A stretch of DNA of 45,448 nucleotides from an uncultured Gammaproteobacteria bacterium (GTDB lineage: Bacteria; Patescibacteriota; Patescibacteriia; Magasanikbacterales; GCA-002688135), in the NCBI GenBank assembly GCA_964622665.1, contig CAZUUO010000003.1:1-45448 (forward strand), read 5' to 3'. How positions within the stretch are numbered: position 1 is the first letter of the stretch; each line of letters opens with the position of its first letter. Position numbers and translations under genes: made by a program. Below are positions 6,822-43,670 of the stretch, piece by piece. The notes beneath the pieces were generated by a model. The model searched no databases, was not told where the DNA came from, and saw only the letters and a program-made list of their open reading frames with translations.

Positions 6822-6825
6822 TACT

Positions 6826-9254: not shown

Positions 9255-12056
9255 TTAATTATTTCCTGGCAATGATTTATCTACTGAGACATTCGTTGCT
9301 GTGTTTTTTGCGTTATAGGGATTAAAGGCACTCGATGAAGTGATATCTGATCCGGTCTTATAATTTACAAAGAATGAATCTGAAATATCTTCAACTTGCG
9401 CAGCCCATGCATAACCATACAAATCTCTTGCCACACTTTCACTTGCAATCCAACGGAGTAATCCATTACTGTCCACTGCGTATACTTTTGGATTATCAAT
9501 GAATTTTACCATCTTACTTCCAGGACGATAGGTGACGTTTCCACCCAGTGGGATGCTTGCTAATGTTGTATCAGCAACGGTAACTACCAACCCCCCTTTG
9601 TTTGTTGCCTTAAGATCAAGTGCTGTATACCAACTTAGAAACACTTTTTGATTTGGGAATGCATAGCGATACCCATTTCTGCCAATGTAGTAAACTGCTG
9701 AATTACCAGCACGCTTAATCAGCATGTGTGGATATACCCCACTTGGAAGTGAGCGAATATCGTTTGGACCCTGAGGATTTGTTGTTTCACTACCCATGGT
9801 GTCTTGTAACGTAATGGTCATGGTTGATACGTCAGTTACTGAACCATTGTCTGACGCAAACATATAGTAGACCGTTTTCAAACCATTACCTGGACTTAGT
9901 TGCCAGTACTTGATGTTTTCAAACCAATCCCATGTTGCATTTGCAAAATCACTGGTATTTGAAACCGCTACTCTGTTTGCCCCAGTTGTACCAAAATATA
10001 ATTGCACATTGCGGTAAATTGCTTTTGATTGTCCATCATTAATGCGCGCATAAGATACCAATGGTTTGTTGACTCCATTACTTACCAATTCAATAGAGTC
10101 ACACATGATACTTGATGTAGCGCCATTATTTGAGTTTCGGTAACGAACACACACATTCTGTAAACCTAATTTTGGTCGTAGGGTGTAGGTTCGTGTTGCG
10201 TAATATTGTTGATATGCACCAGCATCAGAAAGATCTGTGTTTGAACCAATCTGAAACTGATCAGCATTATTCGCAACCGTATCAAGTGTTACATAAATTG
10301 ATGATGCTGTTTGAGCGCCGCCATTGATAATAATGTTACCCGTTGGTGTGCCACTCACAATTGATCCATCAAGAGCTATAGTACCACTCACTACTTGTGA
10401 TAATTTTCCATCATTATTTTTGAATTGCACATACACTCGTTTTGAACCATTTCCGGCAAGCAAATTCCATTGTTTTGAGCTTGCGTATGATTCCCAATAC
10501 GCATCTTTAAAATCACTATAATTTGAAATTGCCATTTGGGTTGCGTTGATTGCACCCAATTGCAAAGTCACTGATTGATTATTTGTTGTTGCGTTACCAC
10601 TATTAATATTAATGTAGGGATTATAGGGTGCTCCATTTACCCCTAGTAATACATTGATAGTATCGCAAGCTACTGGTGAAATTTTTCCTGTTTGTGTGTT
10701 GCGTACTCGCGCACAAACCGTTGCGTATCCATTATTTGGTAACAATGAAATTGACTTTGTACCCCCGATTGCTTCATAACCACTTGCATTGAGCATCTCG
10801 CTATTTTGTGCAAATTGAATTTGATCACCATTGCTGCTATATACTGAAACCGAAACATCAGCTGAATATGTTTCAATAGCGCCACCAGCAATTAAGAGAG
10901 TAACCTGTGGGTCATTTGAACTTGGTGTTCCTTGGGTATAGTAACCAAAAGTGTAATGTGTTCCACTATTTCCTGATAAATACTCGCCAGTTACTGCACG
11001 CGCCGTTACATCGACATTATAGTATTGGCCGTATGTTTGATTGCTTGGATTTATTGTTACAACAGTGTTTCCTTGTGACCAAGAAGTGCTGTATGACACG
11101 TTTGGTGAAATAGAAAATGCGAATGAAGCAACATCAATTGGTTGTGTAAATGTCAAAACAATCGGTGCATTTAAACTGACTGTTGCATTACCCGCAATTG
11201 AACTACTCACGGTGGGGACGCCACCCACGTCAGTGAAGGTTGCATTATATTGTGCGTCCACTGAATTACCAACACTATCCTTGATAGCTGCTCCAGAACG
11301 AGCAAGTACTTGCCACTGTGCGCCACCTAATCCTGATACATTTGATTGATCAATATTGAATAGCAACTCAGAAGATAAAAATCCTGAGCCCACTTGGCTT
11401 GCTACTGATGACAAAGTAATAGTACGTACTACACCACTTGTTGTTGTTGCATACACCAATAAATCTTGATTTGCGGTGCTTGCGCTCGCATACACCGGCT
11501 CATTAAATGTCACCCCCAATTGTGTTGGTACATTACCAGACTTAATAAGACGTGCGCTATTTATACGTGGCGCTGTGGTATCAATTTTAAAATAATCACC
11601 ATACTGACTTTGTCCGTCATTAATATTACTGTACACGCGTGCTGTACCTTCTGAAGTCTTGTTGTTTACGAGGGCACTTATATTAGTGATGGTAATGTTT
11701 TGACCCAAAACACAGCTTTTCTTTACTGTGAAGCGTAATTCTTTTTGCCCGTAAATTTCAACTCGAGGAGGATATAGTAGTGTGGTGTCTGAAATAACCG
11801 TATTTGCCGTTGTTCTATCATCAAAAATCAAACCATTTCCTGCCTGGTTAATACCAACTACTAACGAATCCCCTTCTTTTATTTCACCCGCTGTATTGCA
11901 GCGGAAATTTATCTGAGGAATATCAATTCTACTAGTATTTCCTTTTACATCTCCCACCGCTCCAACTGAAAAGCTGAAAGCAGATGCACTAGAAACTCCG
12001 CTTAACAATGTTACTAACACGAGAGAAACTGTCCCTAATAGATGTTTCGTATTCAT
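9255..12056 (-). CDS. Large secreted surface protein (933 aa) with Ig-like region, four tandem modules and a C-terminal shared domain
   Basis: Signal peptide MNTKHLLGTVSLVLVTLLSGVSSASA, with ATG at 12056. A DTTAPRI segment is typical of SbsA/Big-type Ig-like domains. The C-terminal 129 aa are homologous to the N-terminal domain of the 3087..6821 protein. Confidence 0.8.
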   Translation of the reverse strand: MNTKHLLGTVSLVLVTLLSGVSSASAFSFSVGAVGDVKGNTSRIDIPQINFRCNTAGEIKEGDSLVVGINQAGNGLIFDDRTTANTVISDTTLLYPPRVEIYGQKELRFTVKKSCVLGQNITITNISALVNNKTSEGTARVYSNINDGQSQYGDYFKIDTTAPRINSARLIKSGNVPTQLGVTFNEPVYASASTANQDLLVYATTTSGVVRTITLSSVASQVGSGFLSSELLFNIDQSNVSGLGGAQWQVLARSGAAIKDSVGNSVDAQYNATFTDVGGVPTVSSSIAGNATVSLNAPIVLTFTQPIDVASFAFSISPNVSYSTSWSQGNTVVTINPSNQTYGQYYNVDVTARAVTGEYLSGNSGTHYTFGYYTQGTPSSNDPQVTLLIAGGAIETYSADVSVSVYSSNGDQIQFAQNSEMLNASGYEAIGGTKSISLLPNNGYATVCARVRNTQTGKISPVACDTINVLLGVNGAPYNPYININSGNATTNNQSVTLQLGAINATQMAISNYSDFKDAYWESYASSKQWNLLAGNGSKRVYVQFKNNDGKLSQVVSGTIALDGSIVSGTPTGNIIINGGAQTASSIYVTLDTVANNADQFQIGSNTDLSDAGAYQQYYATRTYTLRPKLGLQNVCVRYRNSNNGATSSIMCDSIELVSNGVNKPLVSYARINDGQSKAIYRNVQLYFGTTGANRVAVSNTSDFANATWDWFENIKYWQLSPGNGLKTVYYMFASDNGSVTDVSTMTITLQDTMGSETTNPQGPNDIRSLPSGVYPHMLIKRAGNSAVYYIGRNGYRYAFPNQKVFLSWYTALDLKATNKGGLVVTVADTTLASIPLGGNVTYRPGSKMVKFIDNPKVYAVDSNGLLRWIASESVARDLYGYAWAAQVEDISDSFFVNYKTGSDITSSSAFNPYNAKNTATNVSVDKSLPGNN
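9804..10913 (-). repeat. Four tandem protein modules of about 90 aa inside the 933-aa surface protein
   Basis: Each module follows the same pattern: I-N-x-G-x4-T-x4-V-x-L, then S-N/D-F/L, then W/Y-x-Y, then L-x4-G-x-K/Q-x-V-x3-F/R-x-N/D-x-G. Example segments: YININSGNATTNNQSVTLQL...KRVYVQFKNNDGKLS and YARINDGQSKAIYRNVQLYF...KTVYYMFASDNGSVT. Confidence 0.6.
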
Positions 12057-12093
12057 ATGATACAAGCCTACCACACTATACTAATTAATAAAA

Positions 12094-17354: not shown

Positions 17355-19289
17355 CTACGTTCCGCAGCCACCACCGAGGCAGCAATGCAAGTTCGCCTTG
17401 GGGAAGGGTGCCGTCGGCACTCCCACTCCCTCGCGCACCATCGTGCAGAAGATCTGATTCCCGCCGTAGTAGAGCGAATACGAGAGACACTGCGTCTCAT
17501 CGATACTCATACCGTCGGGGTTGGGCGCGATCCAGGTGGTATCGTTTCCTTGCTTTTCGTCGGTGTCAAACTCGACGTTCAGCCAGTAGTTTCCATCGGA
17601 AACTCCACTGACTTCGTAGCTCCACGACCAACCGGTCGCGTCACCCTGCACAGAATTGACTGGCTTGACTGCCGGCCAACCCTTCAAGTTTTCCATGATG
17701 AAGAGATCGGAGGACGGACACAGGCCATTCTCCTCGATCAACAACACAACTTCTCCGGCCGCTGGACTGAAGCTACCTGCTTCATCAGTCAAACCGTCGC
17801 AGTCGTTGTCGACAAGATCTCCCGACCATTCCGGCTGATCCGGGTTGGCCTTGGGGTTCGTGTCGTCGCAGTCGTCGCCCTTGCTACAGAGCTTCCCGAA
17901 GCCGTCCATGTCAGCGTCCTCACAGAGGCCACTGTAGTCACAGTCGGTGTCGACGACGTTGTTGCAATCGTTGTCGACGTTGTCGCCACAGACCTCAGTC
18001 ATCGGCAACTCATCCTCGTAACACGGCCCTTGGTAGGTGCCATCCCAGCAGAACTGGAGTCCTGCGGTACAAGCTCCCACACCAAGCGTCATTGGATCCC
18101 CGCCGTAACACGAAGTGGCGAGCAAGAACTCGTCATTGAGATCTTCGTCCACCAGTGCATCGCAGTCATTGTTGAGACCGTCGCACAGTTCAGGCACTGG
18201 AAGCACCTGACCAACGCATACGTCCCAAATTCCACCAGTGCAGGTCTCGAGACCTGCGTGGCAAGTGCCGACACCTTCAGTGCCGGGAGTACCACTGTAG
18301 CATGACTGGGTCAGCGGATTGCCGTCGAGGCCTTCATCCGTCGTTCCATCACAGTCGTTGTCCTTGGTGTCGCACGTCTCAGGAACCGGAGTTCCCTCCG
18401 TTGCGCCACACTCAGTCGCCGTCGTATCGGCCGTACAGACCATGACACCCGACGACATACACTCGCCAACACCAACTGAGCAGGAGGTTCCCAAGTCGGG
18501 GTATCCCTCGTCGGTCGTTCCATCACAGTCGTTGTCCTTGGTATCGCAGACATCGGTTGATGGCATCACGCTACCCGTGCAGGTCCCGAAGGTTCCTTCG
18601 AAACACGCTTGAGAACCGAGGTGACACTCGCCAACCCCCGCGTTACCAGGCAAACCGCTGTAGCATGACTGGGTCAATGCTCCATTGTTTGTCTGGTTTT
18701 CGTCGGTCGAGCCGTCGCAATCGTTGTCTTTCAAGTCGCAAGACTCGGGAGCAGGAAGGACAGAGCCATTACAGCTCCCCCACACGCCCGCACCACAAAC
18801 CGAAGTACCCACAACACAAGCACCAACACCCTTGGTGACAGCCGGGCCGTCGTAGCACTCTTTCATGAGGCTTTCGTCGGTCGTTCCGTCACAGTTGTTG
18901 TCTTTGTTGTCACAAGACTCGGGTGCTGGGATCACTTCATTGTCGCACCCAGTGTACAAACCACCGATGCAATACTGCTTGCCCTGCACACACATACCAA
19001 CGCCCGATGTTCCCACCGGACCGTTATAACAAAGCGTAAACGCTCCGTCTTCTCCACAGGGTGTTCCCGGAGGACCAGACGTGAGAGAAGCAGAGAACGT
19101 CGCGTTTTGCTTCGCCTCGTCCATGGAGGCATAACTGTTATTCTTTTTTTCTTCAGGTGTTTCGTTCGCACAAGCAACAAACAAAGAAATGAAAACGCTA
19201 AACAAAGCAATATTTTTCATCATCAGCTTGTCGCCGTGCAACGGCGACTTGTTTCCGGGCACCGCCCGGAAACGGGATTGGGTGATCAT
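17355..19289 (-). CDS. Cysteine-rich repeat lipoprotein with MopE-like C-D-x-x-D-N-D-C-D-G-x-x-D-E motifs; GC-rich foreign-looking gene
   Basis: ATG 19289 has GGAGGAG 6 nt upstream. Lipobox LFVAC has its Cys at aa 40. I hand-counted about 49 Cys. Motifs such as CDNKDNNCDGTTDE, CDLKDNDCDGSTDE and CDTKDNDCDGTTDE (twice) alternate with EGF-like G-V-G-x-C segments. Alternative starts are at 19223 and 19220. Confidence 0.8.
   Translation of the reverse strand: MITQSRFRAVPGNKSPLHGDKLMMKNIALFSVFISLFVACANETPEEKKNNSYASMDEAKQNATFSASLTSGPPGTPCGEDGAFTLCYNGPVGTSGVGMCVQGKQYCIGGLYTGCDNEVIPAPESCDNKDNNCDGTTDESLMKECYDGPAVTKGVGACVVGTSVCGAGVWGSCNGSVLPAPESCDLKDNDCDGSTDENQTNNGALTQSCYSGLPGNAGVGECHLGSQACFEGTFGTCTGSVMPSTDVCDTKDNDCDGTTDEGYPDLGTSCSVGVGECMSSGVMVCTADTTATECGATEGTPVPETCDTKDNDCDGTTDEGLDGNPLTQSCYSGTPGTEGVGTCHAGLETCTGGIWDVCVGQVLPVPELCDGLNNDCDALVDEDLNDEFLLATSCYGGDPMTLGVGACTAGLQFCWDGTYQGPCYEDELPMTEVCGDNVDNDCNNVVDTDCDYSGLCEDADMDGFGKLCSKGDDCDDTNPKANPDQPEWSGDLVDNDCDGLTDEAGSFSPAAGEVVLLIEENGLCPSSDLFIMENLKGWPAVKPVNSVQGDATGWSWSYEVSGVSDGNYWLNVEFDTDEKQGNDTTWIAPNPDGMSIDETQCLSYSLYYGGNQIFCTMVREGVGVPTAPFPKANLHCCLGGGCGT
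17781..19058 (-). repeat. Six to seven tandem Cys-rich modules (57-63 aa, about 170-175 nt period)
   Basis: Near-identical DNA segments recur, for example cgttccatcacagtcgttgtccttggt at about 18340 and about 18510. A related pair, ttcgtcggtcg...gtcgcaagactcggg, lies at about 18700 and about 18875. Confidence 0.7.
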
Positions 19290-19513: not shown

Positions 19514-20794
19514 TTACTTTACTGAGGAAAATAAGAGATTAGTTGGGCGAATATGCTTTTCATAACTCTCTTGTAACCGTATTTTTTTGTCTTCCTTTGT
19601 TTCTTCTTTGCTTGGTTGAGAAAGGGCAGCCAGAGATCTCACCATCCCCCTTCCCCATGTTTTAATGATGGTGTCTACCGCCATAAAGGCATTTTTTCTT
19701 TTTTCTACTTGTTTTTGATCAACTGAAAATGAGAGTTGGGTATTTTTTATATTTTGCATTTCAGACAATGTTACCCCTGTTGTGCGGTACTCTCTTCCCT
19801 TTTTATACATTTTCGCAAACATTTTTTGTAAGGCAGGAATGAAATCAAGAGGAATATTACTTGCTTGTTCAATATGGATATTTTCAGTGGTGATAATAAA
19901 ATTTTGTGTTTTAAGAAAAATAGCGATAGCGGTTGCTTTCGTGTTATGTAATCGTAACTTGTAGCAAGCGCGTTCTAAATTTACGATACACTGTCGATAC
20001 ACTTCTTGTTCTTGTGTTGTTTTTTCGAAGGTGTGAGATTTTGTAATAGTAAGATAGGAAGTTTTTTTAGTTGTCATCACTTCAAATACTGCAATCCCTT
20101 TTAACTCTTTGTAGGTTGTTAATAGGGGTGCGTCAGCGTGGCGCATAACAAACAACTCTCCACGAGCAATAAAGTCACTCACGGTTTTGATACCAAAACG
20201 TTGTAATAATTTTCTTTGCGCAACGCCGATACCCCACACATTTTCAATGGAAGTCTTTTGGGTCACCACTGCAACATCCTCTGATGAAATCATAACCTTT
20301 CGATTATGTGGTTTGTTATATGAACTTGCAATTTTTGCAAGAGTCTTACTCTTAGCACAACCAACAGACACCGAAATACCTAATGACAATTCGACATCTT
20401 CTTGAATGCACTGTAATAATTTTTCATAACTCATTTCTAGTGTTTGTGGAAGGTCTGTAATATCAGCAAATACTTCATCGATTGAATATTCTTCGACGTC
20501 ACCACAATAACTTTTAACAATATCAAACATTCTTCGTGAAAAAAGATTGTATACTTCAAAATCTGAATTAGTAATAATCGCGTGTGGGCACAATTGTTTC
20601 ACTTCTGCCATTCTCATTCCTCTTTTTACCCCGAATTTTTTTGCCTCATAACTAAATGCTGTTGCAATTCCTTTTTCTCCCCCGCATACAACTGGTTTCC
20701 CTTTCCATTGTGGATGCATTGCTTGTTCACACGATGCAAAGAATGCATCTGCATCAATATGAAGAATAACCCGTGATGAATTTCGAGTGCTCAT
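19514..20794 (-). CDS. dinB: Y-family DNA polymerase (Pol IV/DinB-like)
   Basis: ILHIDADAFFASCEQ, SIDEVFADITD and the little-finger region fit the family. It sits downstream of lexA on the same strand. Confidence 0.85.
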   Translation of the reverse strand: MSTRNSSRVILHIDADAFFASCEQAMHPQWKGKPVVCGGEKGIATAFSYEAKKFGVKRGMRMAEVKQLCPHAIITNSDFEVYNLFSRRMFDIVKSYCGDVEEYSIDEVFADITDLPQTLEMSYEKLLQCIQEDVELSLGISVSVGCAKSKTLAKIASSYNKPHNRKVMISSEDVAVVTQKTSIENVWGIGVAQRKLLQRFGIKTVSDFIARGELFVMRHADAPLLTTYKELKGIAVFEVMTTKKTSYLTITKSHTFEKTTQEQEVYRQCIVNLERACYKLRLHNTKATAIAIFLKTQNFIITTENIHIEQASNIPLDFIPALQKMFAKMYKKGREYRTTGVTLSEMQNIKNTQLSFSVDQKQVEKRKNAFMAVDTIIKTWGRGMVRSLAALSQPSKEETKEDKKIRLQESYEKHIRPTNLLFSSVK

Positions 20795-21191: not shown

Positions 21192-21773
21192 TTATCGATA
21201 TTTACGAATAACTGCAGTAACTACACCAGCCACTGATAGCGCATTATTAGGAACTATTGGTCGATATTTTCTATTCGCTGGTCGCAACACGACATCTCTT
21301 CCTTTTTTCTCAAAAAACTTCATTGTCCATTCATGATCAACCTCTGCTACGACGATGTCACCATTTCTTGGATTTTTTCCACGTTCGAGAACCACGAAGT
21401 CTCCTGGTTGAATTCCGGCATCTATCATAGAGTCGCCTGAAACTTTCAATAAAAAACTTGCTTGGTGATTGGTAATCAAGAAATCATCGAGACTCACAAT
21501 GTCTGAAATTTCTTCTTCCGCATGTGTTGGGAACCCTGCTTGTACAGTTCCCAAAATTCGCAATCCTTTTTTTAAACCAAGTGGTACTAATTTTCCTTCA
21601 CTATCTTTTTCAATGAGCCGTGCATCAATCATTTTCTGTACTATTTGGAATACTGCATTTTTAGACTTAACTTCAAACAGTTCTAGCATCTCACGATAAC
21701 TCGGTAATCGCTTGTTTGCATCAAGAAACTTTCGAATTACGTTGACGCGTGTATCAAATTGATCGACTGACAT
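21192..21773 (-). CDS. lexA: LexA repressor (winged HTH plus S24 peptidase)
   Basis: Cleavage-site VQAG, catalytic Ser in SGDSM, Lys in TMKFF, and an N-terminal HTH. Confidence 0.9.
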   Translation of the reverse strand: MSVDQFDTRVNVIRKFLDANKRLPSYREMLELFEVKSKNAVFQIVQKMIDARLIEKDSEGKLVPLGLKKGLRILGTVQAGFPTHAEEEISDIVSLDDFLITNHQASFLLKVSGDSMIDAGIQPGDFVVLERGKNPRNGDIVVAEVDHEWTMKFFEKKGRDVVLRPANRKYRPIVPNNALSVAGVVTAVIRKYR

Positions 21774-25058: not shown

Positions 25059-26330
25059 ATGCGTCTTCCACGCTTTGTTTTTCCCCTATTTCTTTTAACA
25101 TTTTTAATCGGCACACCAGCACTTTTGTTATACACAGCAGGTTATTCCTATAATTTTTCAACGCATAAATTAGAACAAGTTGGTTTTTTATTGATTGATG
25201 GAACCCCCAAAGATGCTGATGTGTATCTTTCAAATAAATTAATTGCGCAGCAGATGCCCTTATATGTAAAGCGCGCGATTCCTGATTCCTATGCTATTCG
25301 TATTGAAAAGGAAGGATACGTTCCCTATGAAACCGATGTACGCATTGCCCCTCGTCAAAGTGTCGTTTACTCACCACTCTATTTAATTCGCAAAGAAGTA
25401 CCCCAACAATTGAGCGCATCATTGGGCACGTTATTATATTTTGATGAGCAACGGGGTAATGCCTACTTTGTTTCCACAGCAAACCCTCGTGACGTGCTTG
25501 TGTACCATGTCACCACTTCCGTTACTCAAAAAATTTCGTTACCATTTTCAGTTTCAAATATCACTCCTTTCATTACAGAGCATTCACTCGCCTTTGTCAC
25601 GCCAACTCGTTCTTTTATTCTCAACCTTGAGAACTTTGAAGTGCGTACGATTATTGGAAAGTATACATCACTGGTTGTTTCTAGTAACGACACTATTTTT
25701 GCTATCACCAATCATTCACTCGTTTCCCTTTCTTCTCGCGATGTTGTTACTGTGGTTGATCCTACCACTTCGTTTACAACACTTATTACCGCTCTTGGTA
25801 ATACTGTTGTGGGTATTACATCACAGGGAGACACAAAGGCGTATTTTGATGGAGCTTACCAAACTATCTGTAGCGAATCACTCGGTGAATTACAGGCGCA
25901 GCACATACAGCGTGGTGTTGGATTTGCTTCTGATGCTGATTCTTCTCTCATGGTTACCGGTGAAGGACGTTCTGTTACGTGTGATAATTTTAATGCTCCC
26001 TTTGTTACCTTCCACAACAACAATCTCGTTGTTTCAGATGATGTTAGTGTTTCGTATTTCGACAAGGAACACACGGAACGACCCATCGTGCGTTTGCGTG
26101 CACCCATGACCTACTTTACCGTCATTCCTCAAACTCCCTACTTTGTCTTTGTTTCAAACAAACAACTGTATATATATAATTCTGAGGACACACGCATGAA
26201 ACCATACGTATATCCTTTTGCGATTGCACCGCGCGCATTGTTTCCTTCGCCCGACGGTCGCACCCTATTTATTGACGGCATTGTTGATACTACCGACGGA
26301 TTCTTCTCTCTCACCCTTACCGACGAATAA
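25059..26330 (+). CDS. PEGA-domain membrane-anchored protein
   Basis: N-terminal TM, then DADVYLSNKLIAQQMPLYVKRAIPDSYAIRIEKEGYVPYETDVRI (PEGA motif EKEGY). The remainder looks beta-rich. Confidence 0.6.
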   Translation: MRLPRFVFPLFLLTFLIGTPALLLYTAGYSYNFSTHKLEQVGFLLIDGTPKDADVYLSNKLIAQQMPLYVKRAIPDSYAIRIEKEGYVPYETDVRIAPRQSVVYSPLYLIRKEVPQQLSASLGTLLYFDEQRGNAYFVSTANPRDVLVYHVTTSVTQKISLPFSVSNITPFITEHSLAFVTPTRSFILNLENFEVRTIIGKYTSLVVSSNDTIFAITNHSLVSLSSRDVVTVVDPTTSFTTLITALGNTVVGITSQGDTKAYFDGAYQTICSESLGELQAQHIQRGVGFASDADSSLMVTGEGRSVTCDNFNAPFVTFHNNNLVVSDDVSVSYFDKEHTERPIVRLRAPMTYFTVIPQTPYFVFVSNKQLYIYNSEDTRMKPYVYPFAIAPRALFPSPDGRTLFIDGIVDTTDGFFSLTLTDE

Positions 26331-33928: not shown

Positions 33929-34417
33929 TTATGGTTTACAAGCCGTTTTTCCTCTAATTTCAAAAGAATCTACCCACAATTTCCCTCCCTCATTGTGATA
34001 TGAAACTTGATAGCGCTGGTCCTTTTCATTATACCGAATATTTTCGCCAGATATTTCAATGGTTTTCTTTTGCCAGTTGTCCGCTTTTGGTAATACGACG
34101 TAGGTAAAATCGGTCATCTGTTGTCCAAACTGAAAGCCAAATTCAGTATCAGCCGTACTCTTATACGTTATCATCGCCTCGAGACATCCAAATTTTTTCG
34201 GTGTACGAATATGGTGAAACACTCTTCCCGTCACCTCCATCACAGCACGTCCTTCACGATATGTTTTCACTGCTTGTGTTCCGGGGCGCATCGTCGTACA
34301 AATAGCATTTTGAAATCGAAATTCACAGGCTCCGTGCCATGACGGCCCAAAAAATTGTATGACTGCATACCCCATGCCGAGCACTACACTACTGCGTACC
34401 ACCCACGAAAATTTCAT
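33929..34417 (-). CDS. Hypothetical membrane-anchored/secreted beta-rich protein
   Basis: N-terminal hydrophobic anchor. No motif recognised. It is in an operon position downstream of the GT-C-like gene. Confidence 0.45.
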   Translation of the reverse strand: MKFSWVVRSSVVLGMGYAVIQFFGPSWHGACEFRFQNAICTTMRPGTQAVKTYREGRAVMEVTGRVFHHIRTPKKFGCLEAMITYKSTADTEFGFQFGQQMTDFTYVVLPKADNWQKKTIEISGENIRYNEKDQRYQVSYHNEGGKLWVDSFEIRGKTACKP

Positions 34418-36011
34418 ATAATATCACTGTTTCATCTCGATAGATTTGTTCAAACACCATTTCTTTATCTGATCCTTTTTCTTGCCATGTCCCATTTTTT
34501 TGAAATGCAGCAATGGCATCGCTTTGTTCATACAGCGCAAATACCCGAACTCCTGCTTTTTGTAATGCGGTTATTGACTCCTTCATTTGTGGACTTTCCC
34601 ATGCTTCACTCATTACTCTTCGTTGTGGAAACACCACCTTGTCGAGAGATTTGGTGAGCACTACAGCATCAGAGGGAATATAGTTGAGCGCCACGTTAGT
34701 GCTGGTATCATAGTGCACATGACGTGCAACCATTGCGGTGACTCCATCAGCCCCTCGATACACCACCCGTACACTCGTGATCATCGCCAACACCGCAATT
34801 ACTGAAAATGCCACGAGCACCCATTTTTCATAACGATCTTTTATTGTTTCTAATGCGATGGCAATCAAGGGAAGTAACATGATACTTGCTACCAACCAAT
34901 ACCGCACATAGGAATTGCTGATCGTGACTGCTCCCAACCCCGAATCATTAAACATAAAAATGCCGTAGGCAATCCACTGTGCAACCATCACATACACACA
35001 CACCGCACACAAGCGCACATAGTGCGTGATCACATCGTGCGTTACCTTACGCACATAGCGATAGTACAACACTACCCCCAACCCCCCCGCACCCAATGTC
35101 GCATGTACCCATTGCAATTTTCCAAAATAATTCCACACATTTTTTATCATGTCACTACTGTGACTACCAAACGGTAATGAAATACCTGACGATAAAATCA
35201 TGGAAGTATTGAGTATTTCTAGCGATGGATGCCGTAAAAACCACGTCACAACACCATATCCAAGCACAGTCAACACACCACAGCCCATAAATAATAGTGA
35301 GGCTTTGCGCATTTCTTTGTAATACCCGTACAGATATGCAAGGAGTGGCAACATCCACACGAACTCAATGGGACGGATGAGTACTGCTAATCCAAAACTT
35401 GCGCCCGACAACAGCAACGTCAGACGACGCGCGAATACGGTTTGAGTTTTTTGTAACGCATATGCAGCGCCACACCACGACACTACTAGCAGCATTGCAA
35501 ACGCAATGTTGTTGTGCCATGCACGAAATGAAAAGTAGAGTATGCCCGGCATGATGAGTGATAACGAACCTACCAACCACGATGTTTCTCGTGAAAAATG
35601 TAAGCGCGCAATTGATAATACGGCAATACTCATGATGATTGTGAGGAGTGGTGTGAGCAAAGGTACAACATCAAAGCCTACCGCGCGCGCAAGCAAACCA
35701 TAGATGAGTGACATGCCCCAAAATACCGAATGAGAAACTATCCCTCCATGACTTTCCATGGCACGAGGATGTACTCGATCAAACGCGATTCCGTTGTAGA
35801 GTTCAGTGGTGTGCAGTTGTCCTTGTTCTGCAACCGTATGTGCAAAAAAATTGTTTGCGCGTTCGTCCGGTGACATGAACGAGGTGGTTACCGTTGCAAA
35901 TGACTGCAAAGAAACCCATAAAAATATGAGTACTGAAATTGCGTACCAAAGGACCGGTACGAATTCCCCCCACTTCACTCCTTTTGATTCTCGTGTAACA
36001 ATAAAGGACAC
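34389..36011 (-). CDS. GT-C fold glycosyltransferase-like membrane protein (ArnT/PMT, GT39/83-like)
   Basis: About 12 TM segments. A D-E pair lies in the first extracytoplasmic loop (SPDERANNFFAH) and there is a C-terminal soluble domain. GTG start, and the exact start is uncertain. Confidence 0.55.
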   Translation of the reverse strand: MSFIVTRESKGVKWGEFVPVLWYAISVLIFLWVSLQSFATVTTSFMSPDERANNFFAHTVAEQGQLHTTELYNGIAFDRVHPRAMESHGGIVSHSVFWGMSLIYGLLARAVGFDVVPLLTPLLTIIMSIAVLSIARLHFSRETSWLVGSLSLIMPGILYFSFRAWHNNIAFAMLLVVSWCGAAYALQKTQTVFARRLTLLLSGASFGLAVLIRPIEFVWMLPLLAYLYGYYKEMRKASLLFMGCGVLTVLGYGVVTWFLRHPSLEILNTSMILSSGISLPFGSHSSDMIKNVWNYFGKLQWVHATLGAGGLGVVLYYRYVRKVTHDVITHYVRLCAVCVYVMVAQWIAYGIFMFNDSGLGAVTISNSYVRYWLVASIMLLPLIAIALETIKDRYEKWVLVAFSVIAVLAMITSVRVVYRGADGVTAMVARHVHYDTSTNVALNYIPSDAVVLTKSLDKVVFPQRRVMSEAWESPQMKESITALQKAGVRVFALYEQSDAIAAFQKNGTWQEKGSDKEMVFEQIYRDETVILYEIFVGGTQ

Positions 36012-36014
36012 ACT

Positions 36015-38018
36015 ATGAATATCATGTATATATGTGGAGCACTCGCTGCGGCTCTCTATGGCCTCAACGCACCCTCGCTTTCGTGCCTTTTCTTTATATT
36101 GTATAGTACCGCATCTGCGTCATATTTGGCAATGAAATTTTTTGGCGAGAGAAGTCACTCCTTTTCATGGGGTTTTTTACTGTTTTGCGGCACCTTTTGC
36201 AGTATTGGGACAATACTCTACTACGTATTCTCCTGGAATATCTATACCATCACCGCAACCATGTTTCTCACACCACTTGTCGGTTTATTTTCAAAAGTAC
36301 AAAAAAATGAGTCGCCTGAGGTTCCCTTACTTGATGAAGTTGCTGCTGTTGTTTCCAGCGCCTCACCATTTCACTGGCTCTTTAGTGCGTCTATGTTACT
36401 ATTCGTGTATTACACCGCAACGTTTGCAACCGATAGTTCTGTGCGTACGCCCTTTGAATTATTACCCGCCAAATTTTTCGTGATACTTGGTATCCTTGCT
36501 ACTATATTTTTTTACTATCTCTTTTCACGACTTCGCGATGTAAAACCGTATGTTGCCGGATTATTACTCGTGTCATTTCCATTACTGCTCGGAAGTTTGT
36601 TAGTGCCTCTTGGTTTTGGTTTTGATCCCTTCATTCACATCACAACACAGGAACACATCGCACAATACGGAGAAATTTTACCTAAAACCCCGTACTACCT
36701 TGGTGCCTATATTATTCCAACCACCATTTCAATTCTCTCTCACTCACTTCCCTTTCTTGGTTTTGTTGATCGCTTTATTGCACCACTCCTGTTATCCCTC
36801 GTGGCATTTCTTATTGCGCGATTATACACGAGCTCACCAAAGGCAGCAGTTTTTTCTCTCCTCACTCTCTTTCTATTACCTGTTTCTGCATTTACTATCA
36901 CCACACCGCATGCTCTCGCCGTTTGTTTTGGATTACTTGCTCTTGCTTGTGCCATCAAACAATCACCGATCATCACAACATTTATTTTTGCGGTTACCGC
37001 TTGCTTCATGCATCCACTCGTGGGAGTTGGTGCACTACTCCTTTCACTTATTATTTTCTCAGCTCACCATCGTCAGTATCTTATCGCAGCACTCCTATTA
37101 CCGACACTTGTCCTATATCCTGCACTCCTCTTATCCTGTGTCACCGTGTGTACGATCCCGTCATCAATTGCTGTTCCCACACTTCCTTATTTCACCTCAT
37201 TTGTAGTTTCCTTTGATACCCTCCTTGACGCACTCTACGGAATATTATCCGCAACACCCTTTATAGTACTCACCATTATTATCTGTGCCACGTTTATTAA
37301 ACGCACTACCGAAGAACGACGGATATACTATTTTTTGGGCGGTGGTTTGTTGTGTCTCTTGCTCTCTAGTTTTTTAGTACAAGGTATTTCGCTACAAAAT
37401 GTTATCACCTATGAAGGAGGTGTCTTTGCAACGCGCATGATCACGATTGCCCTTATTTTTACATTCCCTTTTTACGTACAAGGTACTGATACTATATTCA
37501 CCTATGTTGCATCGCAAAAGTTTTTACTGAGAGCTTCGTTTGCTGTTCTCTTTGGTCTCTTGTTTACCGCTTCGGTTTTTTCACTCTATCCTCGTCACAA
37601 CAATGTTGAAATCAGTCGTTTTTACTCGATATCACACAATGACTTCGACGTGGTGACCCGTATTGCTGAAGATGCAGGTACCGCTGAATATACGGTGCTT
37701 GCGCCACAACCAACTTCAACGGCTGCTTTGCGTACGTTTGGATTTACTCATTACCAAAAAACCACCGAAGGAACAAAACAATTTTTTTATCCCATTCCTA
37801 CCGGCGGAACGTTGTACAGTTTTTATTTGAAACTCGTTAATACCGAAATTAATCGTGATACTGTCGCACAAGCAGCACAGTACATGGGAAGCACGCGCGT
37901 ATATGTCGTTATCCCTGCGTATTGGTTTGATAGCGCTCGACTATTTCGTGAACTTAACGCAACTGCGGATGCCGTATTTACCGTCGGCACGACAATGGTT
38001 GGTGTCTATCAATGGTAA
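36015..38018 (+). CDS. Large polytopic membrane protein with C-terminal soluble domain (possible GT-C-like; function unknown)
   Basis: 667 aa with 14 or more hydrophobic segments. I found no STT3 WWDYG motif. Confidence 0.5.
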   Translation: MNIMYICGALAAALYGLNAPSLSCLFFILYSTASASYLAMKFFGERSHSFSWGFLLFCGTFCSIGTILYYVFSWNIYTITATMFLTPLVGLFSKVQKNESPEVPLLDEVAAVVSSASPFHWLFSASMLLFVYYTATFATDSSVRTPFELLPAKFFVILGILATIFFYYLFSRLRDVKPYVAGLLLVSFPLLLGSLLVPLGFGFDPFIHITTQEHIAQYGEILPKTPYYLGAYIIPTTISILSHSLPFLGFVDRFIAPLLLSLVAFLIARLYTSSPKAAVFSLLTLFLLPVSAFTITTPHALAVCFGLLALACAIKQSPIITTFIFAVTACFMHPLVGVGALLLSLIIFSAHHRQYLIAALLLPTLVLYPALLLSCVTVCTIPSSIAVPTLPYFTSFVVSFDTLLDALYGILSATPFIVLTIIICATFIKRTTEERRIYYFLGGGLLCLLLSSFLVQGISLQNVITYEGGVFATRMITIALIFTFPFYVQGTDTIFTYVASQKFLLRASFAVLFGLLFTASVFSLYPRHNNVEISRFYSISHNDFDVVTRIAEDAGTAEYTVLAPQPTSTAALRTFGFTHYQKTTEGTKQFFYPIPTGGTLYSFYLKLVNTEINRDTVAQAAQYMGSTRVYVVIPAYWFDSARLFRELNATADAVFTVGTTMVGVYQW

Positions 38019-39200: not shown

Positions 39201-40736
39201 ATGGCTGATCATATCAAAGTCCCACCCCACAATCTTGAAGCCGAGAAATCACTCTTGGGCAGTATTTTGATTGATGCCAATGCTTTCATTAAAGTTGGTG
39301 ACCAAATCCAATCCGAAGATTTTTATCTTGATGTCCATCGCATTATTTTTACGGTCATGGTGGAGTTATTCTCTCGTCATCAACCGATCGATGTTCTCAC
39401 CCTCTCCAACCGTCTTGAAGAATTGGAACGTCTCCAATCTATTGGTGGCCGCAGTTATTTGGTTGAATTGGGTAACTCTGTTTCTAGTTCCTCCCACATC
39501 ATCCACTATGCATCAATTATCAAAAAGAAAGCGACGTTGCGCCGTTTGTTGAGCGCCTCAGCTGAAATCACTGAATTAAGTTTCAATGAAGAGGAAGATA
39601 TCGACATTATTATTGATCGAGCTGAACAAACACTCTTTTCAGTTTCTTCACAAGGAACCAACAAAACATTTGTCCCGCTCACCAGCATGTTGTCTGAAGC
39701 GTTTGAACGCATTGATGAACTACACCGTGATAAAGGAAAAACACGTGGCGTACCTTCGGGATTTACCGGGCTTGATTCACTGCTTGGTGGATTTCAAAAA
39801 TCTGATTTGATTATTTTAGCTGCTCGTCCATCAGTGGGTAAAACTGCGTTTGTGCTGGACGTTGCGCGCCAAGCTGCCGTGCGTTCCAAATTACCCGTTG
39901 CTCTTTTTTCATTGGAAATGGCCAAGGAACAACTCGTTGATCGTATGATTTCTAGTGAGGCTAATGTTGATCTATGGAAAATGCGTAGCGGACGACTCTC
40001 TGATCAAGGTGAGGTTGATGATTTCACCCGTATTGGTCACGCGCTCGGCGTGCTTGCTGAAGCACCCATTTTTATTGATGATACCCCAGCAACAACCGTG
40101 ACCCAAATTAGAACCAAAGCACGTCGTCTCCAAACAGAACACGGTCTTGGCATGATTATCATTGATTACTTACAACTCATTGATTCAAAAACGAGTGTGG
40201 AAAATCGTGTGCAAGAAATTTCTCAAATTTCACGCTCCTTAAAAATGATCGCCCGTGAATTAAACATTCCCGTGATCGCATTGTCACAGTTGTCACGTAC
40301 TGTTGAAATGACCAAACCGGCTATTCCTCGTTTGTCACACTTGCGTGATTCAGGTTCTATTGAGCAGGATGCTGATATCGTTGTCTTTTTGTATCGTAAA
40401 GCTGCCGACCGCAACTATCGCCTTGAAGATATTCCCCCTGAAGAACGAAACCTCGCTGAAGTCCACATCGCAAAACACAGAAACGGTCCAACGGGTGTGG
40501 TAAAACTATTTTTTGATGCAGCACGCGTGAGTTTTCGTAATTTGGAAAATCATTACGGTGAAAATGGTGGAGCACAAAAATCTCCGCCACCTGCCGCCAA
40601 CCGTCCACAAGCTCCCGCACAACCAAATCAATTCGCACAAAAACCACGTCCGGTATATGGCGTTCCTCGCCCGAGTGCCCCCACTACTACCGGTACACCG
40701 TCGGCACCGAAAGCACCACCGATTCCTCCGATGTAA
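39201..40736 (+). CDS. dnaB: Replicative DNA helicase DnaB with a 59-aa Pro-rich C-terminal tail
   Basis: N-terminal PPHNLEAEKSLLGSIL, Walker A ARPSVGKT, IIIDYLQL and SQLSR motifs. Confidence 0.95.
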   Translation: MADHIKVPPHNLEAEKSLLGSILIDANAFIKVGDQIQSEDFYLDVHRIIFTVMVELFSRHQPIDVLTLSNRLEELERLQSIGGRSYLVELGNSVSSSSHIIHYASIIKKKATLRRLLSASAEITELSFNEEEDIDIIIDRAEQTLFSVSSQGTNKTFVPLTSMLSEAFERIDELHRDKGKTRGVPSGFTGLDSLLGGFQKSDLIILAARPSVGKTAFVLDVARQAAVRSKLPVALFSLEMAKEQLVDRMISSEANVDLWKMRSGRLSDQGEVDDFTRIGHALGVLAEAPIFIDDTPATTVTQIRTKARRLQTEHGLGMIIIDYLQLIDSKTSVENRVQEISQISRSLKMIARELNIPVIALSQLSRTVEMTKPAIPRLSHLRDSGSIEQDADIVVFLYRKAADRNYRLEDIPPEERNLAEVHIAKHRNGPTGVVKLFFDAARVSFRNLENHYGENGGAQKSPPPAANRPQAPAQPNQFAQKPRPVYGVPRPSAPTTTGTPSAPKAPPIPPM

Positions 40737-41130: not shown

Positions 41131-41721
41131 ATGTTTCCAAGCGCACTCAAACATTTGATCGATGCGTTTGGCAAGATAAACGGTGTTGGACCAAAAACGG
41201 CATTACGATATGCGCTCCACACCGCTTATTTTAATCGTCACGATGGTGCCGCACTCTTACGCGCATTACAAGAAGTACAAAACACCTTACATGATTGTAC
41301 GGTGTGTTTTACGATTGCTGATGCACAGTTGTGTCACATTTGTGCGGCAACGACGCGTAACAAAAGTATCGTGTGTGTGGTTGCGTCTCCTCAAGAGGTG
41401 GAAACAATTGAAAAAGCGGGAACTTATGAAGGGGTGTACCATGTACTGCAAGGTCTCTTGAGTCAGGCCGAAGGTATTGATGTTGCAGATATTAAAATAG
41501 CAGAATTGGAAAAGCGGATTGCTGCGGGAGGAATTTCTGAAATTATTTTGGCGATGTCGCCGACCGTTGAAGGTGAAATTACTGCACATTATTTACAAAA
41601 AAAGTTGAAAGGTTTAGTGAAAATTTCTCGTATTGCGCGAGGTTTACCGATGGGTTCGTTGCTTGAGTATATGGATGACGCGACGATTGCCGAAGCGTTG
41701 CGTGACCGAAAAGTTTCATAA
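41131..41721 (+). CDS. recR: Recombination protein RecR
   Basis: HhH segment INGVGPKTALRYA, Cys4 zinc finger CTVCFTI...CHIC, and a Toprim domain. Confidence 0.95.
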   Translation: MFPSALKHLIDAFGKINGVGPKTALRYALHTAYFNRHDGAALLRALQEVQNTLHDCTVCFTIADAQLCHICAATTRNKSIVCVVASPQEVETIEKAGTYEGVYHVLQGLLSQAEGIDVADIKIAELEKRIAAGGISEIILAMSPTVEGEITAHYLQKKLKGLVKISRIARGLPMGSLLEYMDDATIAEALRDRKVS

Positions 41722-41727
41722 AAAGAA

Positions 41728-41769
41728 AAAGACTTCACGTAAACCCGTAGGTTAGTCGTGAAGTCTTTT
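41728..41769. terminator. Bidirectional terminator shared by recR (+) and the GC-rich orphan gene (-)
   Basis: AAA-GACTTCACG-17 nt-CGTGAAGTC-TTTT, with a T-run on the opposite strand as well. Confidence 0.75.
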
Positions 41770-41901
41770 GACAACTGTCGCTGGAAAGACAAGGAAGGGG
41801 GAGGGACGCGTGTTGACACATCCCTTCAAACGTGGAGCGTTAACTCCATGTTGAGCACTCAGAGGATCTGAGCACTCACCCCTCCCTCAGCGAGGCGGTT
41901 G

Positions 41902-42783
41902 TTAGACCGACTCGACGCTGCGGGGGGTGCGCTTGGTGGGCTTCTTGTTGCCGAGACCTCCGAGAAGGCTCGTCACCTGGGCCGTGTCTTCGGCGGAGAG
42001 CACAGGCTCGGTGGGGCGGGTCTTGCGACCGTTCCCGTCGTTGCCCATCGCTGCTACACCGAGGCCACCGAGCAGGTTGCCCATGCTGTGGGTGATCTTG
42101 CGATCGTTTTCACGCATGGCGTTCTGCTGCGCGAGGCGCTCCGTGTCGAGACGGTGGAAGTGCATACGCAGCTTCCACTCGACCTCCAACTCCGAGAAGA
42201 TCTCGGCGAACACGAACGTGAACGGCTTCGTGGCCTGCTTCGCGAGCCGATCGGCCTTGGCGGCGTCGGACCCCCGGAGACGTGCACGAAGTTCCTCGTC
42301 CATGTCCTTGTCGTCGTCATCCGCGTCGTTGTTGCCGAACCCCTTGCTGAGGAGCTGCTTCGCGTACTGCGTACGGAGAGCCTTTGCGTGGGCGGAGCCC
42401 AACGCGTACTTGCTCAGCTCCTTGACCAGCGCCCCGACCAGGGTCGACTCGACGGCCTTGTACTCCGTCGCGGACTTCTTGTCCTCGTCGAGGCCCTTGA
42501 ACACACCGACAGTGATGGCAGCTGCGTTCGCGAGCCGCCAGTCGTTGGCCTCCATGAGCTTGTGGCCGAGGATGAAGAGGTTGGCCGCGTTGGCCTCATC
42601 CCCACCGAGGGCCGGGATCACCTTGAGGGCTTCACAGTACTTGATGGCGCGTGTAGCCTTGGTCTCGGAGATCGTGACGACCTCCTGCTCCCTACCGAAG
42701 CGGACGAACTGGTAGGTGCCGTTCTTCAGGTTGTCGATGGTCTGCGTGGCGAAGACGGAACGGAAGTTGATCTCGTTGCTCAT
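41902..42783 (-). CDS. Orphan 293-aa protein of unknown function, GC3-saturated foreign-looking gene
   Basis: ATG 42783 is preceded by GGAG plus 7 nt. The product starts MSNEINFRSVFATQTIDNLKNGTYQFVRFGREQ... It has an acidic patch NNDADDDDKDMDEE and a Gly-rich basic tail with LLGGLG twice. Third codon positions are almost all G/C. I trimmed 54 codons of leader from the track ORF 41902..42945. Confidence 0.7.
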   Translation of the reverse strand: MSNEINFRSVFATQTIDNLKNGTYQFVRFGREQEVVTISETKATRAIKYCEALKVIPALGGDEANAANLFILGHKLMEANDWRLANAAAITVGVFKGLDEDKKSATEYKAVESTLVGALVKELSKYALGSAHAKALRTQYAKQLLSKGFGNNDADDDDKDMDEELRARLRGSDAAKADRLAKQATKPFTFVFAEIFSELEVEWKLRMHFHRLDTERLAQQNAMRENDRKITHSMGNLLGGLGVAAMGNDGNGRKTRPTEPVLSAEDTAQVTSLLGGLGNKKPTKRTPRSVESV

Positions 42784-42989
42784 GTGTTTTCTCCGTGTGC
42801 GGGTGGCAATCGATGCCCCCGCGTCGTCGTTTGGGAGAGCGCTTGGGCAACCACACCATTGTGGATGACCCTGTGTGCGAACTCCCTCTAGTCTCTGAAC
42901 TTCTACAGTGCAAGAGCGCATTACTTTCCCGTAACGCACTCTCACGATTCGATCGTCTTGTCCTTTTTCATCGTTTTCAGGCGATGAGT

Positions 42990-43154
42990 TTAAGAACTTG
43001 ATAATCTTTGGTCAACAACTCGCTTATTTCTTTCACTCTCGCTTACCGCAAGAATGAAAGACGTGGGCGTGATGCTGACCGTTAAATCGCTACCTTGAAG
43101 CGCAATACATTGTGCACCAAGGTAGAACGAGTGCGTTACTTCTTTTCTTTCCAT
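42990..43154 (-). CDS. Candidate 54-aa small ORF inside the long leader (very uncertain)
   Basis: My own translation: MERKEVTHSFYLGAQCIALQGSDLTVSITPTSFILAVSESERNKRVVDQRLSSS. There is no Shine-Dalgarno sequence upstream, and it is below the ORF-track length cutoff. Confidence 0.2.
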   Translation of the reverse strand: MERKEVTHSFYLGAQCIALQGSDLTVSITPTSFILAVSESERNKRVVDQRLSSS

Positions 43155-43220
43155 TACAGTTGTTAATGTTCTCGATTAAGTAGGCGTTGTTTCTCTTGCC
43201 TCATCTCATCGTAACGTCGT

Positions 43221-43249
43221 AGTATAGCATGGTTGTCAGATTTTGTCAA
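43221..43249 (-). promoter_or_regulatory. Near-consensus sigma-70 promoter with extended -10, driving the leader and the GC-rich gene
   Basis: The minus strand reads TTGACA-17 nt-TATACT, preceded by TGc. This is the best promoter match I found in the window. Confidence 0.6.
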
Positions 43250-43364
43250 GCATCTTTCCATCACTTTTCTTATTTTTTGCTTATTTTAGATGTTTTTATT
43301 GGTAGTATTCTGTATACTCTTCACTATACAAATACAGCTTTCCCTATATTTTATGGGCTTTTTA

Positions 43365-43670
43365 CTAGTTTTCCCCTACCCCACTCTCAGACAAATCCTG
43401 CCATTGTGGGTTTTTTTCCTCGATTATCTTTACCTGCCACTCTTTTCTCCAGTCTTTTAACTGTTTAACACGGCGTAGTGCATCACTTGAGTTTCCATAT
43501 TCTTCACAGTGCACCAATACCGTGATCCCTTGTTTTTTAGTGTAACCGTTGGACATCTTATCAGCATGTTCAGCAATTCTTCGTTTAATATTGGTTGTAA
43601 CACCCATATATAAAGGTCCCTGTTTTTTGGAAGCGAGGATATAGACCCGATATTGTTTAGATTTTTTCAT
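43365..43670 (-). CDS. Small stand-alone GIY-YIG nuclease-domain protein (UPF0213/URI-like)
   Basis: YRVYILASKKQGPLYMGVTTNIKRRIAEH is the GIY...YMG...R..EH pattern. The start is set to ATG 43670. The track start 43733 is a GTG that lies inside the upstream terminator. Confidence 0.85.
   Translation of the reverse strand: MKKSKQYRVYILASKKQGPLYMGVTTNIKRRIAEHADKMSNGYTKKQGITVLVHCEEYGNSSDALRRVKQLKDWRKEWQVKIIEEKNPQWQDLSESGVGEN

Follow-up and report, generated by a model that had tools for sequence, protein, structure and literature searches.

We analysed a 45,448-nt stretch of DNA (hereafter the window; contig CAZUUO010000003.1 of GenBank assembly GCA_964622665.1) from an uncultured bacterium placed in the Patescibacteriota, focusing on an open reading frame (ORF) on its minus strand, 41902-42783, that lies between recR and a GIY-YIG gene. 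With a G+C content (GC) of 0.629, this ORF of 293 codons stands far outside the 882-nt windows taken elsewhere along the stretch (0.406 +/- 0.025, z = 9; G+C of the whole window, 41.8%), and GC at its third codon positions (GC3) reaches 0.871, compared with 0.332 +/- 0.046 in 33 host genes (z = 11.6). An earlier reading made from the letters alone (the sequence-only reading) had singled the gene out for this composition, and its claim that Lys, Phe, Asn, and Tyr use only the codon ending in G or C is exact by codon counts (AAG 24 and AAA 0, TTC 12 and TTT 0, AAC 16 and AAT 0, TAC 5 and TAT 0); ATC (9/0), CAG (9/0), and CAC (5/0) are used just as exclusively. Host codon preference is the opposite (AAA 0.80, TTT 0.78, AAT 0.64, TAT 0.65), and the AhpC, SOD, and YbaB genes of the window keep to the A/T-ending codons of the host, with AAA to AAG ratios of 13 to 1 or 13 to 2 in each. 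GC by codon position in the ORF is 0.61, 0.41, and 0.87, and its base composition resembles that of high-GC bacteria.

The ORF is part of a cassette of ~1.5 kb (43249-41720, minus strand) that runs from a promoter through a structured leader of ~430 nt, the ORF, and a four-way junction in the 3' untranslated region (UTR) to a terminator (Table 1). The promoter sequence is conserved in contigs from four relatives (L002, L007, L009, and L011). The sequence-only reading had proposed a strong promoter, and a near-consensus one is predicted, but it sits ~430 nt upstream of the ATG and is not adjacent to the gene. A palindrome further upstream is partly conserved in L002, L009, and L011 and is possibly an operator. 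The terminator, which had been described as shared with recR, instead proved to be a conserved part of the cassette itself: it lies 5 nt after the recR stop on the plus strand, its T-run is on the minus strand, it is conserved in L007, L009, and L010, and in L010 a further hairpin stands between it and recR.

Table 1. Features of the cassette and its surroundings in the window, with palindrome sites on contigs of relatives (MFE, minimum free energy; REP, repetitive extragenic palindromic)
Feature	Position	Strand	Remarks
Palindrome TGTATAC-N6-TATACA	43311..43330	.	~60 nt upstream of -35; read from sequence
Sigma-70-type promoter, putative	43221..43249	-	TTGACA, 17-nt spacer, TATACT, TG extended -10; scan 11/12 matches plus TG
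Distal leader, AT-rich	43084..43214	-	GC 0.36; 92-94% identical to L002, L007, L009, L011
Distal leader 5' hairpin, predicted	43211-43173	-	MFE folds of three transcripts
Panhandle 5' arm, predicted	43164-43139	-	MFE folds of three transcripts
Leader switch segment 1, candidate	43139-43129	-	MFE folds of three transcripts
Distal leader hairpin CTACCTTG...CAAGGTAG, predicted	43125-43090	-	MFE folds of three transcripts
Variable middle leader	42953..43083	-	unalignable to L002, L007, L009; homologous in L011
Proximal leader, GC-rich	42784..42952	-	GC 0.56; RNAalifold 35 predicted pairs, 8 with compensatory changes
Leader switch segments 2 and 3, candidate	42943-42931, 42924-42912	-	in proximal leader
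Proximal leader hairpins, predicted	42871-42845; 42822-42799	-	latter just upstream of ribosome-binding site
Shine-Dalgarno GGAG	42794-42791	-	
GC3-saturated hypervariable ORF	41902..42783	-	293 aa
3'UTR four-way junction, predicted	41793..41888	-	outer stem 41888-41873 with 41805-41793; inverted repeat I9
Hairpins within 3'UTR outer stem, predicted	41877-41853, 41852-41828, 41825-41802	-	
Panhandle 3' arm, predicted	41771..41797	-	pairs with 43164-43139; just upstream of terminator; inverted repeats I8, I14
Intrinsic terminator of cassette	41720..41769	-	13-bp stem then TTTTTCTTTTT; inverted repeat I6, 100% complementary
REP-like palindrome sites, L002	297-316		
REP-like palindrome sites, L006	5-24, 1079-1098, 1129-1148		
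REP-like palindrome sites, L007	259-278, 1687-1706		
REP-like palindrome sites, L009	365-384		

We folded three full transcripts with ORFs that are dissimilar at the nucleotide level (window, L007, and L009), and the MFE structure of each contains a 5'-3' panhandle. Over the whole ~1.5-kb RNA, the 5' segment has no better duplex partner than the 3' arm of this panhandle (dG -25.4, -21.7, and -25.1 kcal/mol; median along the RNA, -7 to -9), and the panhandle contains one compensatory change, from A-U to G-C. Within the leader, segment 2 is predicted to pair with either segment 1 or segment 3, the two pairings being mutually exclusive; both (1:2 and 2:3) covary or compensate in a related clade, the 1:2 pairing covarying in L009, which suggests a regulatory switch of an attenuator- or riboswitch-like kind, with neither a ligand nor a leader peptide evident. 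A 54-codon ORF at 42990-43154 was considered as a conserved leader peptide and rejected, as its frame shifts in the related clade. RNAalifold applied to the 3'UTR and terminator, with four sequences only, predicts 77 pairs, 11 of them with compensatory changes. Rfam 15 gave no match at the gathering score in the window or in L007, L009, L010, and L011, and no tRNA or tmRNA was found in the window; up to E = 10, the interval 41600-43500 returned only a chance-level Dianthovirus hit (11 bits against a gathering score of 100). The predicted leader switch, 3' four-way junction, and 5'-3' panhandle are new mRNA structures, and the cassette looks built for strong, stable expression.

In the related clade the middle leader is a replacement segment that carries the palindrome ATTCCCG-N6-CGGGAAT. 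This REP-like or MITE-like (miniature inverted-repeat transposable element) palindrome, in full (GTC)ATTCCCG-N6-CGGGAAT(C), is scattered in that clade, including in the cassette leader and downstream of recR, and pattern counts did not find it anywhere in the 45-kb window.

The product of the ORF belongs to a family that we could trace only inside this cassette. The sequence-only reading had called the gene an orphan, and searches against Pfam, PHROGs, NCBIfam, PADLOC, and PDB sequences and profiles gave nothing significant; two PADLOC hits, to Cas13-ApeA (E = 0.0025) and HEC-01B (E = 0.019), each appeared in one family member only and were treated as noise. A search of 5.8 billion clustered proteins, together with a profile search run exhaustively over 1.84 billion sequences that represent ~15 billion proteins, yielded a family of six members including the window protein, every one of them inside the cassette: P0001 (76% identity to the window protein, contig L001), P0002 (48%, L002), P0123 (31%, L007 and L008), P0126 (25%, L010), and P0124 (23%, L009). 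Protein profiles found no relatives in GTDB species genomes, IMG/VR, or JGI metagenomes, tblastn found none among INPHARED phages and PLSDB plasmids, and the UTR patterns of the cassette were not found in viral contigs. We also searched the literature and found no report of a GC-rich hypervariable gene in Patescibacteria. The protein family is new, an orphan with no match to a known family or fold.

Several lines of evidence indicate that the annotated frame encodes this protein. The ratio of nonsynonymous to synonymous divergence (dN/dS) is lowest of the six frames in the annotated one (0.24 and 0.20 in two close pairs of alleles, independent of each other); for the antisense frame with the same third codon positions it is 0.39-0.50, as is expected for a by-product of the annotated frame, and the other four exceed 1. 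Full-length protein homology is moreover detected between alleles that show no detectable nucleotide similarity. The codon-aligned antisense frame on the plus strand (ORF 41899-42891) contains no stop codon in any of the six alleles, since none of them uses TTA, CTA, or TCA, and is most likely a by-product of the avoidance of UA and of A at third positions.

The window protein has a mass of 32.3 kDa and a pI of 8.8, and the translation contains both the acidic patch and the two LLGGLG motifs described in the sequence-only reading. All family members fall within 32-33.5 kDa and pI 8.7-9.0 and have no hydrophobic segment. We detected no signal peptide or transmembrane segment in the product: the 19-residue Kyte-Doolittle maximum is below 1.5 and the N-terminus is not signal-like, although unconventional export may occur. 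An AlphaFold2 attempt with three sequences was unusable (mean predicted local distance difference test score, pLDDT, 44); a model from six sequences (pLDDT 61.5, predicted template modelling score 0.55) places an alpha/beta domain at the N-terminus (residues 1-146) and a helix of ~55 residues at 188-243, with a disordered acidic linker between the two and a disordered Gly-rich basic tail after the helix. Foldseek matched the model to nothing in PDB or BFVD at E < 1. The product is predicted to be a soluble, basic, mainly helical protein of ~32 kDa with conserved termini.

We found the cassette at the same locus in relatives. The L010 contig carries the ORF, 3'UTR, terminator, and convergent recR, with a RecR 92% identical to that of the window and a synonymous divergence (dS) in recR of 0.71. 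The L011 contig carries the anti-sigma factor gene (which in the window encodes a DUF5667 domain), the GIY-YIG gene (89% identical), the promoter, and a leader of the window type. The sequence-only reading had proposed looking for relatives in which recR directly adjoins the GIY-YIG gene; what we found is the cassette beside recR in L010 and beside GIY-YIG in L011. The switch from AT-rich leader to GC-rich ORF also recurs in L002, L007, and L009. L005 matches the junction from recR to the 3'UTR exactly over 113 nt, to about window position 41834; its RecR (633-1223, against window 41131-41721) differs by ~4 residues with no synonymous differences (proportions of synonymous and nonsynonymous differences, pS 0.00 and pN 0.007) at a coverage of 1.6x, and these differences are probably sequencing error. 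L005 is therefore weak as independent evidence, since it probably represents a near-identical strain and maybe the window's own population.

This recurrence bears out the earlier view that the gene is no product of a faulty assembly, and that explanation, together with the idea of a GC-rich structured RNA holding a chance ORF, can be set aside as negligible: GC-rich sequence does leave frames open, as the antisense frame illustrates, yet both junctions recur in contigs of other projects (L010 and L011 being diverged), GC is partitioned by codon position, and dN/dS and protein homology both single out the annotated frame. The short homologue contigs (1-1.8 kb) also suggested a small replicon, which we rejected: recR contigs of the same runs are equally short, L005 has a coverage of 1.6x, and several of the contigs include the promoter, recR, or GIY-YIG.

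In the more distant L004 (62% RecR identity), recR has a different neighbourhood with no family member, so the family is either confined to a narrow clade or diverged beyond recognition outside it. Compared more widely, the window RecR had its best GTDB match at 34% and was at most 50% identical to named relatives; a Patescibacteria/CPR affinity is no more than hinted at by the DUF5667 anti-sigma factor. Orphan genes flanking recR in L004 were tried as family members and are unrelated. An L004 orphan (4443-5369, minus strand) fills the interval from dnaB to ybaB, which in the window is only a 65-nt spacer; its 308-aa product has a Pro-rich N-terminal region and an hhalign probability of 0.1% against the GC-rich family.

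The cassette combines conserved ends with a hypervariable core. L002, L007, L009, and L010 are 94-97% identical over a 5' region of ~520 nt and a 3' region of ~260-320 nt, and their ORFs share 30-34% amino-acid identity and no detectable nucleotide similarity, except for the L009-L010 pair (83%). A sliding comparison of L007 with L009 gives 96-100% identity across the leader, ~40% within the ORF, and again 96-98% at the 3' end; the changes at either end of the ORF are sharp. Across alleles the body of the ORF has diverged to 23-34% amino-acid identity, and around it are conserved the N-terminal residues, a motif KP-x-T-x-x-x-AE...W, and a C-terminal KPAR...R(P)SV(D/E) tail; the last ~20 codons are conserved along with the promoter, leader, 3'UTR, and terminator. 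Different allele classes occur in the sister runs DRR685411 and DRR685412, with leaders 95% identical. No second copy of the UTRs was found in the 45-kb window, and protein searches returned no ORF-derived fragments.

The hosts that carry these alleles are themselves close. UTRs change ~3x more slowly than synonymous sites (window and L010 UTRs are 13-18% diverged, against a pS of 0.46), so that UTRs 3-5% apart point to a dS of about 0.1-0.2 between their hosts, in agreement with the recR dS of 0.11 between L006 and L010. Ordinary proteins are >97% identical at such distances. Against that recR value, the ORFs of L009 and L010 have a dS of 0.59 (dN 0.12) and form a mosaic of blocks at 95-98% and 68-76% identity, which, on the evidence of sliding identity, points to recombination between diverged alleles.

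The unusual composition is common to every allele. GC3 lies at 0.84-0.88 in six of six, with synonymous sites mutually saturated, and alleles that share no nucleotide similarity use an identical codon set. At four-fold sites the third base is A in ~0.04 (0.03-0.05), C in ~0.5, G in ~0.3, and T in ~0.12 (0.10-0.14), an order of C > G > T >> A that each allele repeats; T at this position in the window allele is mostly CGT and GGT. Summed over the six alleles, AAG outnumbers AAA by about 155 to 2, and the UA dinucleotide has odds ratios of 0.25-0.38. On the coding strand C (0.29-0.33) and G (0.31-0.34) are near-equal (0.32 and 0.31 in the window allele), and A (0.21-0.23) is not depleted.

On balance, we favour a reading in which the gene forms the coding part of a resident, hypervariable, recombining, vertically inherited, and probably single-copy cassette between recR and GIY-YIG, with its GC held at equilibrium. 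The alleles would be old or fast-diverging variants; homologous recombination, with the conserved ends as its anchors, would both exchange them and make them mosaic, and their diversity would be kept by diversifying or frequency-dependent selection. The near-consensus promoter, structured 5' leader, 3' junction, and panhandle would yield an abundant, long-lived mRNA, which the two alternative leader pairings may regulate. Alleles that diverge this far between conserved ends are typical of loci under diversifying or frequency-dependent selection. For the soluble, basic, ~32-kDa product, a part in molecular conflict, against either a phage or a partner cell, is the likeliest class of function, though we offer it with low confidence, as a guess that points to no specific activity.

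High GC appears to be sustained at the locus itself and not to be a relic of some donor genome, because six synonymously saturated alleles all hold GC3 at 0.84-0.88, no donor homologue was found, and relatives carry the cassette at the same locus; GC3 of about 0.87 would then be a locally sustained equilibrium. As its cause we consider GC-biased gene conversion at a recombination hot spot the most likely; selection for a strongly folded mRNA that is poor in A and U and avoids A-ending codons could act in its stead or alongside it. Recombining bacterial genes tend toward higher GC3 (PMC4450053), and the vls cassettes of Borrelia have 49% G+C in a genome of 28.6% (PMC11499132). Host translational selection is unlikely, because AhpC, SOD, and YbaB, which are normally well expressed, use A/T-ending codons. 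A count of AT-to-GC versus GC-to-AT changes is invalid here, because the outgroup, besides being saturated, has G or C at 87% of its own third positions.

Several points weigh against this reading. To our knowledge, GC-biased conversion amounting to 54 GC3 points has no bacterial precedent. Biased conversion also predicts C3 ~ G3 and A3 ~ T3, and we see C3 (~0.50) above G3 (~0.30) and T3 (~0.12) above A3 (~0.04). The excess folding of the ORF over synonymous shuffles is weak (z = -1.3 to -2.4, four alleles). Silent cassettes or second copies were not seen, within 45 kb of genome, and the link between L006 (recR) and L009 (ORF) rests only on a shared sequencing run. Furthermore, the structure model is mediocre (pLDDT 61.5) with no fold match, and a surface-antigen role is unsupported given the lack of a signal peptide or transmembrane segment.

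The asymmetries between C and G and between T and A at third positions, with near-total avoidance of A-ending codons, suggest additional selection at the codon level, and the strongest of the competing explanations, though one we regard as improbable, makes such selection the whole cause. The ORF would avoid A-ending codons read by tRNAs with UNN anticodons, which the rest of the proteome needs, so that its translation would be insulated, e.g., during starvation or attack by an anticodon nuclease. The rarity of A3 relative to T3 at four-fold sites, the ratio of AAG to AAA, the use of AAA, GAA, and CAA by window genes expected to be highly expressed, and the codon set held in common by alleles without nucleotide similarity all fit this idea. 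Regional GC pressure is nevertheless favoured, because GC at first and second positions is raised as well (0.61 and 0.41-0.43 in the alleles, against about 0.50 and 0.37 in the host) and because GC declines with distance from the ORF, from 0.63 within it to 0.56 in the adjacent, non-coding UTRs and 0.36-0.43 in the distal leader; in addition, the window has no tRNA genes from which the tRNA set of the organism could be read.

We consider it less likely still that alleles are repeatedly imported from an unsampled GC-rich pool (phage, plasmid, or the partner organism of an episymbiont) and replace the resident allele via the conserved ends. Such import would account for the abrupt change from ~40% to 96-100% identity at the ORF ends and for a composition like that of high-GC bacteria, and the REP-flanked contexts of L007 and L009 are unlike that of the window. 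The donor, however, would need to have the same UTRs and termini, which are distally AT-rich and host-like, and nothing related turned up in 15 billion proteins, IMG/VR, INPHARED, or PLSDB, even though high-GC bacteria are among the best-sampled organisms.

A more speculative pair of ideas, to which we give little credence, would make the cassette a whole-gene diversity generator working via its own RNA, its structured ends and panhandle marking the transcript for error-prone, GC-biased, RNA-templated copying and the copy being recombined back, or else, less exotically, a gene written in codons the host avoids and still translated when UNN-anticodon tRNAs are disabled. If true, RNA-templated copying would jointly explain the hypervariability confined to the ORF, the host-foreign composition, and the conserved termini.

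The related proposal of an RNA-level element, in which an error-prone reverse transcriptase or RNA polymerase copies the transcript and the whole ORF is diversified as copies recombine back, is very improbable. Conserved termini around a hypervariable core, the predicted panhandle, and the composition unlike the host would suit it, and the mosaic blocks could be conversion tracts, but the window yielded neither a reverse transcriptase nor an RNA-dependent polymerase, template repeats and a mutation pattern specific to adenine are both absent, the cassette keeps a fixed chromosomal position with an ordinary promoter and terminator, and it was not found in viral contigs.

Equally improbable is the conclusion of the sequence-only reading that this is a recently acquired foreign gene, an unameliorated single-gene island. 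An extremely atypical composition and an orphan product are what such a gene would show, and a second GC-rich gene in the window (described below) indicates that the genome holds compositionally odd genes. Against recent arrival, relatives at a recR dS of 0.7 have the same cassette at the same locus, six synonymously saturated alleles have not departed from their narrow GC3 range, and searches of proteins, genomes, viruses, phages, and plasmids produced no donor homologue. Among the window ORFs scanned (34 of the larger ones), no match to integrase, transposase, or reverse-transcriptase Pfam families was found, and a repeat scan found no direct repeats flanking the cassette.

If the cassette is indeed a long-term resident, as we favour, its significance is broader than one locus. 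Atypical composition is routinely read as recent horizontal transfer, and the cassette would be a counter-example to amelioration-based dating, with a third-position GC 54 points above the genome yet with long residence attested by saturating divergence. It would likewise serve as a natural test case for how bacteria maintain GC locally, whether by selection, acting on the mRNA or on tRNA use, or by biased gene conversion. The cassette also defines a new family of orphan proteins and, by prediction, new conserved mRNA structures in a barely sampled AT-rich lineage, and its extreme allelic divergence marks the product as a candidate player in molecular conflict.

Elsewhere in the window, we noted several other features. 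The earlier claim that no other gene shares the GC bias does not hold: gene 17355-19289 (minus strand) has a GC of 0.56 and a GC3 of 0.64 (z = 6.6). It encodes a lipoprotein-like protein of 644 aa with repeated Cys-rich CDxxDNDCDGxTDE motifs (Pfam Cu-binding_MopE), and its neighbours at 19514-20794 and 21192-21773 encode a Y-family DNA polymerase (IMS) and an S24 (LexA/UmuD-like) peptidase. DnaB (39201-40736, plus strand) ends in a Pro-, Ala-, and Gln-rich extension of ~60 residues (...PPAANRPQAPAQPNQ...PPIPPM), which is unusual in a replicative helicase; the DnaB of L004, at 510 aa, is of similar length. The lineage is rich in orphan proteins, and five large ORFs gave no Pfam match at E <= 1e-5: 3087-6872 (minus; 1261 aa), 9255-12074 (minus; 939 aa), 25059-26330 (plus; 423 aa), 34389-36011 (minus; 540 aa), and 36015-38018 (plus; 667 aa).

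Compared with known systems, the cassette resembles a horizontally acquired ORFan islet in its atypical composition, absence of homologues, and single gene, but it differs in occupying the same locus in diverged relatives, in showing no amelioration despite saturated divergence, and in having no donor lineage, mobility genes, or target-site repeats that we could find. As in diversity-generating retroelements, one gene is diversified while its surroundings stay constant; unlike them, no reverse transcriptase, template repeat, or repeat of the ORF was found, the whole ORF varies instead of a region of ~100 nt, and A is not depleted. Integron cassettes differ in that the alleles here are mutually homologous, their own leader included, and no tyrosine recombinase was found in the scanned window ORFs.

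The vls locus of Borrelia is likewise hypervariable with a G+C held above that of the genome, by ~20 points across species, an elevation its authors attribute to the needs of gene conversion; vls consists of an expression site with arrays of silent cassettes, has a coding-strand GC skew of 0.52 and G-runs, and encodes a lipoprotein (PMC11499132). The cassette described here, by contrast, has no silent copies that we saw, C ~ G on the coding strand, no lipobox, and a GC excess concentrated at third codon positions.

At the RNA level, stabilised bacterial mRNAs are known with ompA-type 5' stem-loops, the 3' retroregulator of cry genes, and the long leaders of S-layer mRNAs. The cassette is like these in its strong promoter, its long structured leader that starts with a hairpin, and its 3' stem-loops before the terminator, and it is unlike them in the predicted panhandle around the whole mRNA, the 3'UTR four-way junction, the alternative leader pairings, and the lack of an Rfam match.

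Replacement-type hypervariable loci, such as the flagellin central domain, the S-layer cassette of Clostridioides difficile, and O-antigen loci, provide the closest behavioural parallel. The cassette differs from them in that its product has no recognisable export signal, in that it consists of one small gene flanked by long UTRs that are both structured and conserved, and in that its GC is shifted far upward, where such loci are usually GC-poor or unremarkable. With them it shares the same chromosomal position, conserved flanks and termini, an unalignable core, and a mosaic profile, and from these sequence comparisons the locus appears to behave as a replacement-type hypervariable locus.

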